In this document: positions 44,388 to 47,037 of the stretch, in pieces | How positions within the stretch are numbered: the first letter of the stretch is position 1 | How the letters are laid out: each line of letters opens with the position of its first letter | DNA from: Escherichia coli | GTDB taxonomy: Bacteria > Pseudomonadota > Gammaproteobacteria > Enterobacterales > Enterobacteriaceae | Length of the DNA: 64,000 bases | Assembly (NCBI RefSeq): GCF_044647545.1 | Contig: NZ_CP172818.1 | Direction: 5' to 3' (one strand) | The notes under the pieces: model-generated | Seen by the model: the letters and a program-made list of their open reading frames with translations, nothing else | Told to the model about the DNA's origin: nothing | Database searches by the model: none | Made by a program: the position numbers and the translations under genes

Positions 44388-45788
44388 ATGAGTCAGAATG
44401 TTTATCAATTTATCGACCTGCAGCGCGTTGATCCGCCAAAGAAACCGCTGAAGATCCGCAAAATTGAGTTTGTTGAAATTTACGAGCCGTTTTCCGAAGG
44501 CCAGGCCAAAGCGCAGGCTGACCGCTGTCTGTCGTGCGGCAACCCATACTGCGAGTGGAAATGCCCGGTACACAACTACATCCCGAACTGGCTGAAGCTC
44601 GCCAACGAGGGGCGTATTTTTGAAGCGGCAGAACTGTCGCATCAGACCAATACCCTGCCGGAAGTGTGCGGACGTGTCTGCCCGCAAGACCGTCTGTGCG
44701 AAGGTTCCTGCACCCTGAACGATGAGTTCGGCGCAGTGACCATCGGCAACATTGAGCGCTATATCAACGATAAAGCGTTCGAGATGGGCTGGCGTCCGGA
44801 TATGTCCGGCGTGAAACAGACCGGTAAAAAAGTGGCGATTATCGGTGCAGGCCCGGCGGGTCTGGCGTGTGCGGATGTCCTGACGCGCAACGGCGTAAAA
44901 GCGGTTGTCTTCGACCGTCACCCGGAAATTGGCGGCTTGCTAACCTTCGGTATTCCGGCCTTCAAGCTGGAAAAAGAGGTAATGGCGCGCCGCCGTGAAA
45001 TCTTCACCGGCATGGGTATTGAATTCAAACTCAATACCGAAGTGGGCCGCGACGTACAGCTGGACGATCTGCTGAGTGATTACGATGCCGTGTTCCTTGG
45101 CGTCGGGACTTATCAGTCAATGCGCGGCGGGCTGGAAAACGAAGACGCCGATGGCGTGTACGCAGCGCTGCCGTTCCTCATCGCCAACACCAAACAGTTA
45201 ATGGGCTTTGGCGAAACCAACGACGAACCGTTCGTCAGCATGGAAGGTAAACGCGTGGTGGTCCTTGGCGGTGGCGACACTGCGATGGACTGCGTGCGCA
45301 CGTCTGTACGCCAGGGGGCAAAGCACGTTACCTGTGCCTATCGTCGTGATGAAGAGAACATGCCGGGTTCCCGCCGCGAAGTGAAAAACGCGCGGGAAGA
45401 AGGTGTTGAGTTCAAATTCAACGTCCAGCCGCTGGGTATAGAAGTGAATGGCAACGGCAAAGTCAGCGGCGTAAAAATGGTGCGCACAGAAATGGGCGAA
45501 CCGGATGCCAAAGGCCGTCGCCGCGCAGAGATCGTGGCAGGGTCAGAACATATCGTTCCGGCAGATGCGGTGATCATGGCGTTTGGTTTCCGTCCACACA
45601 GCATGGAATGGCTGGCAAAACACAGCGTCGAGCTGGATTCGCAGGGGCGCATTATCGCCCCGGAAGGCAACGACAACGCTTTCCAGACCAGCAACCCGAA
45701 AATCTTTGCTGGCGGCGATATCGTCCGTGGTTCCGATCTGGTCGTTACCGCCATTGCCGAAGGTCGCAAAGCGGCAGACGGCATATGA
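44388..45788 (+). CDS. gltD: Glutamate synthase (NADPH) small subunit
   Basis: 466-aa [73 protein letters not shown]... ending ...[12 protein letters not shown]; appears about 6 residues shorter at the C-terminus than the 472-aa K-12 form as I recall it. Confidence 0.9.
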
Positions 45789-45909
45789 GGTGTTCTGGAA
45801 AGCGCCTCGCATAATCTGAAGAAAACCAATGTAATACGCACATCTGGATTGTTACCGGCCGATGCAGATCCCGGCGTATAGCTGATTCCATTATTCAACA
45901 CTGCGCCAT

Positions 45910-47037
45910 ATGAAGGGACAGATAATGGAATCGCTCTCAGAAGGAACCACAGCAGGCTACCAGCAAATCCACGACGGCATTATTCATCTGGTCGATAGCG
46001 CCCGGACGGAAACGGTACGTAGTGTTAACGCGTTAATGACCGCCACATACTGGGAAATTGGCCGACAAATTGTCGAATTTGAACAAGGTGGCGAGACCAG
46101 GGCTGCGTATGGTGCGCAGCTAATCAAGCGACTATCAAAGGATTTAAGTCTAAGGTATAAGCGTGGGTTTTCCACCAGGAATTTATGGCAGTTTAAGAAT
46201 TTTTATATTTGTTTTCAACGAATTGAAATTGTGCAGACACTGTCTGCACAATTCACCCCCACAATTCGCCAGACACTATCTGGCGAATCTTGCCATTTAG
46301 CGCAACTTGCCAAATCTTTCCCCCTGCCCTGGTCCACTTACGTCCGTTTGCTTTCTGTTAAAAACGCTGACGCTCGTAGCTTTTATGAGAAAGAAACACT
46401 CCGCTGTGGCTGGTCTGCTCGTCAGCTCGAACGGCAAATTGCGACCCAATTTTATGAGCGGACACTACTGTCACATGACAAATCAGCCATGCTGCAACAA
46501 CACGCTCCTGCCGAGACGCATATTCTTCCGCAACGGGCGATACGCGATCCCTTTGTGCTCGAATTTCTGGAATTGAAAGATGAATATTCAGAATCCGATT
46601 TTGAGGAGGCGCTGATCAACCACCTGATGGATTTCATGCTGGAACTTGGGGATGATTTTGCCTTTGTTAGTCGACAGCGAAGGTTACGCATTGATGACAA
46701 CTGGTTTCGTGTCGATCTGCTGTTTTTCCACCGCCGTTTACGCTGCCTGCTAATCGTCGATCTAAAAGTGGGCAAATTCAGCTATAGCGATGCCGGACAG
46801 ATGAATATGTATCTCAACTACGCCAAAGAGCACTGGACGCTACCGGATGAAAATCCGCCCATCGGTCTGATTCTCTGTGCAGAGAAAGGAGTCGGAGAAG
46901 CGCATTATGCACTGGCTGGTTTACCTAACACCGTTCTGGCGAGTGAATATAAGATGCAACTACCTGATGAAAAACGACTCGCGGATGAACTCGTTCGAAC
47001 ACAGGCGGTGTTAGAGGAAGGCTATAGACGCCGTTAA
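45910..47037 (+). CDS. yhcG: DUF1016 / PD-(D/E)XK nuclease-superfamily protein YhcG
   Basis: 375-aa ORF MKGQIMESLSEGTTAGYQQIHDGIIHLVDSARTETVRS...; C-terminal region has restriction-endonuclease-like D...(E/D)xK spacing (RVDLLFF, IVDLKVGKF); alternative start at ATG 45925 (MESLSEG). Confidence 0.8.
   Translation: MKGQIMESLSEGTTAGYQQIHDGIIHLVDSARTETVRSVNALMTATYWEIGRQIVEFEQGGETRAAYGAQLIKRLSKDLSLRYKRGFSTRNLWQFKNFYICFQRIEIVQTLSAQFTPTIRQTLSGESCHLAQLAKSFPLPWSTYVRLLSVKNADARSFYEKETLRCGWSARQLERQIATQFYERTLLSHDKSAMLQQHAPAETHILPQRAIRDPFVLEFLELKDEYSESDFEEALINHLMDFMLELGDDFAFVSRQRRLRIDDNWFRVDLLFFHRRLRCLLIVDLKVGKFSYSDAGQMNMYLNYAKEHWTLPDENPPIGLILCAEKGVGEAHYALAGLPNTVLASEYKMQLPDEKRLADELVRTQAVLEEGYRRR
46227..46253. 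repeat. 27-bp palindrome, copy 1 (inside yhcG CDS)
   Basis: aattgtgcagaca-c-tgtctgcacaatt: perfect 13-bp arms around a single central base. Confidence 0.7.
46263..46289. repeat. 27-bp palindrome, copy 2 (inside yhcG CDS, 9 bp after copy 1)
   Basis: aattcgccagaca-c-tatctggcgaatc: 11 of 13 arm positions complementary; same AATT....CAGACAC core as copies 1 and 3. Confidence 0.7.

Follow-up and report, generated by a model that had tools for sequence, protein, structure and literature searches.

In Escherichia coli K-12, gltD, the gene of the small subunit of glutamate synthase, is separated from yhcG by gltF and the yhcADEF genes. In the 64,000-nucleotide (nt) stretch of E. coli DNA analysed here (NCBI RefSeq assembly GCF_044647545.1, contig NZ_CP172818.1; referred to below as the window), gltD is followed directly by yhcG and encodes a protein six amino acids (aa) shorter than GltD of K-12. 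This raises the question whether the strain has lost gltF-yhcADEF together with the end of gltD, as a preliminary description of the window had suggested. Our comparisons indicate that direct gltD-yhcG adjacency is the majority and ancestral state in E. coli and that nothing has been lost here; judged from the alignments, the truncation of GltD arises from a 72-nt micro-deletion relative to this short arrangement and is separate from the fimbrial block. The only unusual feature at this locus is a tiny lesion in one assembly, which costs GltD its last six residues and could itself be an error of sequencing.

The adjacency of the two genes was confirmed. The longest open reading frame (ORF) of yhcG opens with an ATG at 45910, 121 nt past the gltD stop, and encodes 375 aa; RefSeq places the start of the gene in identical genomes (MESLSE...) at the equivalent of 45925, 136 nt past the stop, and K-12 has ATA at the position of the upstream in-frame ATG. 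Searches of the window with the K-12 block (blastn; positions 2120-9199 of the K-12 locus, L004) and with GltF, YhcA, YhcD and YhcF (tblastn) revealed no matches. The absence of gltF-yhcADEF, noted before, is therefore correct, and no Yhc chaperone-usher genes lie between gltD and yhcG.

A 601-nt query spanning the junction (45500-46100) was compared with 5426 complete E. coli genomes, of which 3140 matched both of its halves in one place, among them O157:H7, O55:H7, O26, O111, B-strain derivatives, IAI39 and CE10. K-12-type genomes matched gltD and yhcG at two separate places, and B2 genomes (ST131, APEC O1) matched gltD only; in ST131, nanQ comes directly after gltD, with no yhcG. All rows with full coverage, taken from a best-first list and from a list sampled down the ranking, measured 656-666 nt, nearly all of them 665-666 nt, versus 601 nt in the window. 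In the 3140 genomes of the short type the extra 65 nt are present, and those that are annotated encode a GltD of 472 aa. gltF was detected in 1121-1293 genomes (about 21-24% of the complete genomes), and the yhc beta-class chaperone-usher locus has been reported in phylogroup A strains only (PMC5216030).

Related species showed the same order. In E. albertii, gltD is followed by a yhcG fragment and then by nanQ, and its spacer aligned base for base with that of the short E. coli arrangement; in Salmonella, gltD is followed by a full yhcG. Since gltD precedes yhcG in both outgroups, the short arrangement is ancestral and the K-12 block an insertion, and gltF-yhcADEF was never present in the lineage of the window. 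The view that this strain has lost the block was not borne out.

The edges of the insert were mapped by alignment of K-12 with E. coli FDAARGOS_497, a close relative of the window. Homology stops 2 nt past the gltD stop (TAAGC). It begins again with TTCTGGAAAG, 128 nt upstream of the yhcG start, and between these points K-12 carries 7,080 bp (IS5, an insertion sequence (IS), included) in place of 54 nt of the short arrangement. As the edge of the K-12 block lies outside gltD, it cannot account for the short GltD.

The window is a stretch of a phylogroup F (sequence type (ST) 648-like) E. coli chromosome with the ancestral order gltB-gltD / yhcG / nanQ-nanK-nanE-nanT-nanA-nanR. Over the 24 kb around the site (34000-58000) it showed 100.0% identity to many ST648-type (phylogroup F) chromosomes, for example FDAARGOS_497 (NZ_CP033850.1), and the matching interval is 65 nt longer in all of those genomes than in the window. 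A base-by-base comparison of window positions 1-63542 with NZ_CP033850.1 revealed four lesions within 85 bp (45785-45869), with a net loss of 65 nt. First, a T is lost, which turns GGC ATT ATG A into GGC ATA TGA (45780-45788); codon 466 still encodes Ile, TGA follows in frame as codon 467, and the gltD ORF of 466 codons yields a product ending ...AADGI*. Second, GGT stands in for 72 nt, of which 17 nt were the end of gltD with its stop codon and 55 nt were spacer holding a conserved stem-loop. Third and fourth, an A is replaced by C at 45860 and CAGAT is inserted at 45865-45869. The resulting junction sequences read GGCATATGAGGTGTTCTGG and CCGGCCGATGCAGATCC. Besides this patch, the comparison revealed one single-nucleotide polymorphism (SNP; position 983), a 6-nt deletion (15770) and an IS4 copy present in the reference only.

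The patch is private to this one assembly, and 466 aa is not the usual length of GltD. A 91-mer spanning the junction had no one-piece match in the 5426 complete genomes, the best match consisting of two pieces that span 161 nt. The allele with the 5-nt insertion (76-mer, 45830-45905) was found in none of the 3146 genomes having the downstream segment (best identity 92.1%), and no metagenome contig matched the junction 21-mer or a 30-mer containing CAGAT. The single match of a 22-mer of the latter allele among genome representatives, in a metagenome-assembled genome (MAG) of a Thermoplasmata archaeon, was rejected as a chance match in GC-rich DNA with unrelated flanks. At the protein level, the 466-aa form corresponds to WP_400165077.1 and occurs on one contig (4,499,902 bp) in a collection of 15 billion proteins, versus at least 1000 contigs for its 472-aa parent. 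The preliminary description had asked whether this variant is widespread; it is not. The strain-specific indel boundary that it had placed in the last codons of gltD does exist there, with a junction seen in 0 of 5426 genomes, but it is the edge of a private 72-nt lesion and not of gltF-yhcADEF. Likewise, its proviso that many strains might natively carry gltD-yhcG with the same GltD C-terminus holds for the gene order (3140 of 5426) and not for the C-terminus, which belongs to a 472-aa protein in those strains.

As described before, neither an IS nor a repeat scar is visible: no IS and no repeat pair brackets the junction (45780-45800), and an excision or insertion scar was thus not found. 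We considered and rejected several further origins of the junction. A microhomology deletion between two CTGGAA copies would give ...AACTGGCTGGAAAGCG, which differs from the actual sequence. A template switch or quasi-palindrome as the source of the new bases was dismissed, as only 9-11-mers at chance level recur in the window, and the new hairpin at the junction hinges on no more than three new bases and on three G-U pairs. An engineered scar was also considered, since a CATATG is created at the junction, yet reading of the sequence revealed no FRT or other scar sequence.

The six missing residues were then located on the protein. GltD of K-12 and of the nearest relatives of the window has 472 aa and ends ...AADGIMNWLEV. 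All 13 other sampled members of its cluster (Escherichia, Salmonella and Klebsiella) have 472 aa and a tail hexapeptide of the form (M/L)N(W/Y)LEV; by this standard the window GltD is not a full-length enterobacterial GltD. Both Pfam domains of the window protein are complete: Fer4_20 covers residues 25-134 (E = 7e-40) and Pyr_redox_2 residues 147-459 (profile positions 1-291 of 291). The lost residues lie outside both domains, and both catalytic domains are intact. The protein matched chain G of PDB 6S6S with E = 4e-127, and alignments to solved homologues of GltD and Nfn stop at residues 465-470, with homologue tails of varying length. A loss of activity is not expected, because the lost tail lies outside the Pfam domains and past the end of the homologue alignments, where tails vary in length; glutamate synthase with the 466-aa GltD would most likely still work. 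Some cost is possible, as the hexapeptide is kept in every sampled Escherichia, Salmonella and Klebsiella GltD. A review consulted on this point (PMC8097209) revealed no role for the GltD tail.

The non-coding part of the patch strikes two conserved elements. A strong stem-loop lies 8-17 nt past the gltD stop in five of five comparators (E. coli FDAARGOS_497, E. albertii, Salmonella, K-12 and ST131). Its sequence varies between the arrangements, its position is conserved in the five lineages, and the 75-nt segments fold with -23 to -28 kcal/mol; the ancestral form has a 9-bp GC-rich outer stem (13 pairs with the inner stem). In the window this stem-loop is gone, and a weaker new hairpin that relies on G-U pairs gives a 75-nt fold of -14.5 kcal/mol. 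From its conserved position, the stem-loop may act as a terminator or as a stabiliser of the 3' end. Rfam revealed no match in the ancestral spacer or yhcG, even at E values up to 1. Further downstream, two blocks upstream of yhcG are conserved from Salmonella to E. coli (TTGTTA/TTGTTC/TTGATC and TATAGC/TATTGA; 45848-45885 in the window). The length of the spacer between them is conserved and its sequence is not: the blocks are 17-18 nt apart in four lineages versus 22 nt in the window, where CAGAT falls between them. They resemble the -35 and -10 hexamers of a sigma-70 promoter, which are separated by 16-18 nt.

We favour, with a probability of roughly 55%, the reading that the patch is a real, recent and private complex micro-deletion in one isolate, set on an ordinary ancestral junction. 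The four lesions might all stem from a single event of error-prone repair or end joining, at or close to the post-gltD stem-loop; gltBD transcripts may then read through into yhcG, and the putative promoter of yhcG itself may be weakened by the wider spacer. The rest of the window has no homopolymer frameshifts relative to its nearest relative. Residual errors in long-read assemblies are typically 1-2 nt long, and losses of 72 or 6 nt are not typical consensus errors.

Several points weigh against this reading. The deletion ends share no microhomology and the new bases have no local template, so that nothing speaks positively for the proposed repair mechanism. Four lesions in 85 bp are unusual for natural mutation when the remainder of the 64 kb holds a single SNP and a 6-nt indel; most of the private differences are indels, and the only other indel of the window (15770, TTTTGC) also adjoins a GC-rich hairpin. 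That the lesions strike elements kept across genera is as compatible with an error as with a very recent mutation. As for the consequences, the ancestral stem-loop has no T-run and was not called a terminator by the scan, its 80-nt context folds no better than shuffled sequences (z = -1.13), and the consensus scan called no promoter at the two blocks, of which the -10-like one ends in C or A and has no final T. Since neither the stem-loop nor the promoter-like blocks were called by the scans, effects on read-through and promoter strength are conjecture.

Alternatively, the patch may be no more than a consensus or polishing error, local to one long-read draft assembly; the isolate would then have the stem-loop and a normal GltD of 472 aa, and the conclusion on gene order would stand. 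We regard this explanation as a serious, if less probable, possibility. Besides the clustering of four unrelated-looking lesions, the excess of indels and the second hairpin-adjacent indel, it gains from the singleton status of the allele in genomes, metagenomes and protein records. The contig bearing the allele is 4.50 Mb long versus about 4.9-5.3 Mb for ST648-type chromosomes, which suggests that the assembly is probably not closed. The altered sites are themselves GC-rich stem-forming sequence, and the conserved features were struck with no sign of selection. Inverted repeats degrade nanopore base calling, an effect that would act in the same direction and was shown for much longer repeats (PMC7229812). 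On the other side, the consensus is otherwise excellent, as the single SNP in the rest of the window and the intact homopolymers show. Moreover, the region is single-copy in E. coli genomes, which makes repeat-driven mis-polishing unlikely, and the size of the two losses exceeds that of common residual errors, as stated above.

Import of the patch by recombination, as a short tract from some divergent Escherichia lineage with a natural spacer of this kind, is very unlikely and close to refuted. Differences clustered in an otherwise identical background are the classic signature of short gene conversion; yet no donor exists among the 5426 complete E. coli genomes (A-, B2- and short-type), the E. 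albertii and Salmonella loci or the metagenome contigs, and the sole match among genome representatives is the archaeal chance 22-mer. The donor would also need a truncated GltD, whose tail is kept across genera, and the flanking gltD codons carry no extra SNPs where lineages differ about every 17 nt. As little credit is due to the proposal that a real patch rewires regulation, in which loss of the stem-loop and growth of the spacer by 5 nt would put the PDDEXK-nuclease gene yhcG under read-through from nitrogen-regulated gltBD. In this view the gltD-nan interval would be a rearrangement hot spot shaped by a locus-specific 27-nt palindrome, which stays palindromic even within the yhcG coding sequence and bounds the B2 and E. 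albertii deletions. That the strain deleted gltF-yhcADEF with a left breakpoint in the last gltD codons would fit the absent block, the short GltD, the right end of the 72-nt loss (45791/45792) within about 2 nt of the resumption of K-12 homology and a GAGGT pentamer common to the window and to K-12/B2 sequence just after gltD, but it is already refuted by the gene-order counts, the mapped insert edges, the outgroups with their ancestral short arrangement, flanks identical to short-arrangement genomes right up to the lesion on both sides, a spacer right of the lesion that is the short-arrangement allele and not the strongly divergent K-12 allele, the reported restriction of the block to phylogroup A and the fact that only three bases are new, which reduces the GAGGT match to GGT, no more than chance would give.

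That the cryptic fimbrial operon gltF-yhcADEF is present in some lineages and absent from others is a known polymorphism. To this our analysis adds its polarity, an insertion in the K-12 type and no deletion here, and the exact edges of the insert. If the micro-deletion is real, the isolate offers a natural test of whether the GltD C-terminal hexapeptide and the post-gltD stem-loop are dispensable; if it is an artefact, it calls for caution, as the RefSeq 466-aa 'GltD' WP_400165077.1 would then have been made by a local assembly error.

Table. Positions of the genes, lesions and repeats at the gltD-yhcG junction and its surroundings in the window.
Feature	Position	Strand	Evidence
gltB, glutamate synthase large subunit	39915-44375	+	ORF list and NZ_CP033850.1 annotation (~100% identical genome)
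gltD, glutamate synthase small subunit, private 466-aa allele without the final MNWLEV	44388-45788	+	Translation, Pfam, exact match WP_400165077.1
Site of 1-nt deletion, ATT ATG to AT- ATG	45784-45785	+	Base-by-base comparison with NZ_CP033850.1 and alignment
Filler GGT in place of 72 nt of ancestral sequence	45789-45791	+	Alignment, base-by-base comparison
Retained gltD-yhcG spacer with conserved -35-like TTGTTA and -10-like TATAGC	45792-45924	+	Alignments with E. coli FDAARGOS_497, E. albertii, K-12 and Salmonella
Private substitution, C here versus A in all relatives	45860	+	Base-by-base comparison
Private 5-nt insertion CAGAT	45865-45869	+	Alignment, base-by-base comparison
yhcG, DUF1016 / PDDEXK nuclease-domain protein, 370 aa	45925-47037	+	ORF list, Pfam
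Two 27-29-nt palindromes inside yhcG (context, outside the lesion)	46227-46255 and 46263-46291 (span 46227-46291)		
Third palindrome copy, 15 nt past the yhcG stop and before the nanQ end (context, outside the lesion)	47052-47080		
nanQ (yhcH), first gene of the convergent nan cluster	47097-47561	-	ORF list and annotation of the identical genome

The genes around the junction follow the nearest relatives. gltD begins 12 nt beyond gltB in the same orientation, in agreement with the annotation of the identical genome. For gltB itself, the longest ORF opens at 39807, and the RefSeq-type start given in the table was taken over from that genome. yhcG is the same as the gene of NZ_CP033850.1, with no differences listed beyond 45869, and its product contains DUF1016_N (PF17761, E = 5.5e-43) and the PDDEXK domain YhcG_C (PF06250, E = 1.2e-55).

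In comparison with K-12, yhcG is a mosaic (45925-47037 versus L004:9328-10455): the first ~240 nt are near-identical, the palindrome region is strongly divergent with several indels, and the remainder shows ~90% identity. Identity is 82% over a compared 653 nt made up of the spacer and the first ~525 nt of yhcG; the K-12 protein has 375 aa and that of the window 370 aa. In Salmonella enterica (L008/L009, 8846-11366), yhcG and nanQ are separated by two genes, one cytosine/purine permease-like and one for an amidohydrolase, and this pair represents a further lineage-specific insert in the gltD-nan interval.

The palindrome has the form AATT...CAGACAcTGTCTG...AATT, measures 27-29 nt and occurs twice in yhcG and once 15 nt past its stop codon. 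Its consensus is AATT(C)nnnCAGACAcTrTCTGnnnGAATT, with perfect arms of 12-13 nt, and its core pattern has 6 strand-matches in the window versus 0.34 expected. Paired changes between the copies keep the arms complementary even within the yhcG coding sequence, while the encoded residues change (IVQTLSAQF versus IRQTLSGES). Elsewhere, copies were found at L004:2131-2160 and 10469-10495, at L005:9322-9348 and at L007:7905-7970. A copy directly follows gltD in K-12 and B2 genomes. The B2 type (ST131) has one copy only, with the gltD flank on one side and the nanQ flank on the other; in E. albertii, the truncated yhcG runs up to a copy beyond which comes the flank that follows yhcG. The arrangement of these junctions suggests that they reflect copy-to-copy deletions. 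A genome-wide repeat family was rejected: the palindrome is confined to this locus (median, 2 places per genome), a number that we read as mostly both-strand matching.

The remaining differences from FDAARGOS_497 lie far from the junction. At position 983, in infB, the window and the reference differ in a single base (A versus G), and the base of the window occurs in none of 5424 matching complete E. coli genomes (126-mer; best identity everywhere 99.2%). At 15769/15770, TTTTGC is deleted relative to FDAARGOS_497, and the T-tract directly after the GC-rich hairpin CCCCGGCACATGGCCGGGG between dacB and obgE (cgtA) is gone; the hairpin is the dacB/obgE terminator, and the loss is the second hairpin-adjacent indel in the same assembly. 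In a search with a 121-mer of this site, the six top-ranked genomes had no one-piece match and carry an insert of the repetitive extragenic palindromic (REP) type there instead; genomes further down the ranking may have such a match. At ~61376-61387, the IS4 copy of FDAARGOS_497 between degS and mdh is absent from the window; the two alignment blocks overlap by 12 nt, which fits a target-site duplication in the reference.

Compared with known systems, the window is closest to the gltBD-yhcG-nan locus of phylogroup F, D, E and B1 E. coli (FDAARGOS_497, O157:H7, IAI39), whose gene order and sequence it shares. It differs from the FDAARGOS_497-type locus in a junction that is 65 nt shorter (-1, -72+3, +5) and carries one substitution, in a GltD of 466 instead of 472 aa and in the absent stem-loop. 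The gltBDF-yhcADEF region of K-12, in which yhcE is split by IS5, has the same flanking gltB, gltD, yhcG and nan genes and a common yhcG start region; its 7,080-bp insert is wholly lacking in the window. The B2-type arrangement (ST131, APEC O1; gltD - palindrome - nanQ) concerns the same variable site and has an intact GltD of 472 aa, but it has no yhcG and keeps one 27-nt palindrome copy, whereas in the window yhcG is retained and gltD is not directly followed by a palindrome. At the protein level, the beta subunit of Azospirillum brasilense glutamate synthase (PDB 6S6S/6S6X, 2VDC) shows homology over residues 3-468 (E = 4e-127). The core conserved with Azospirillum ends ...GR.AA.GI, precisely where the GltD of the window stops; the Azospirillum chain runs ~15 residues past this aligned core with an unrelated tail, while the enterobacterial tail is the hexapeptide that the window GltD lacks.

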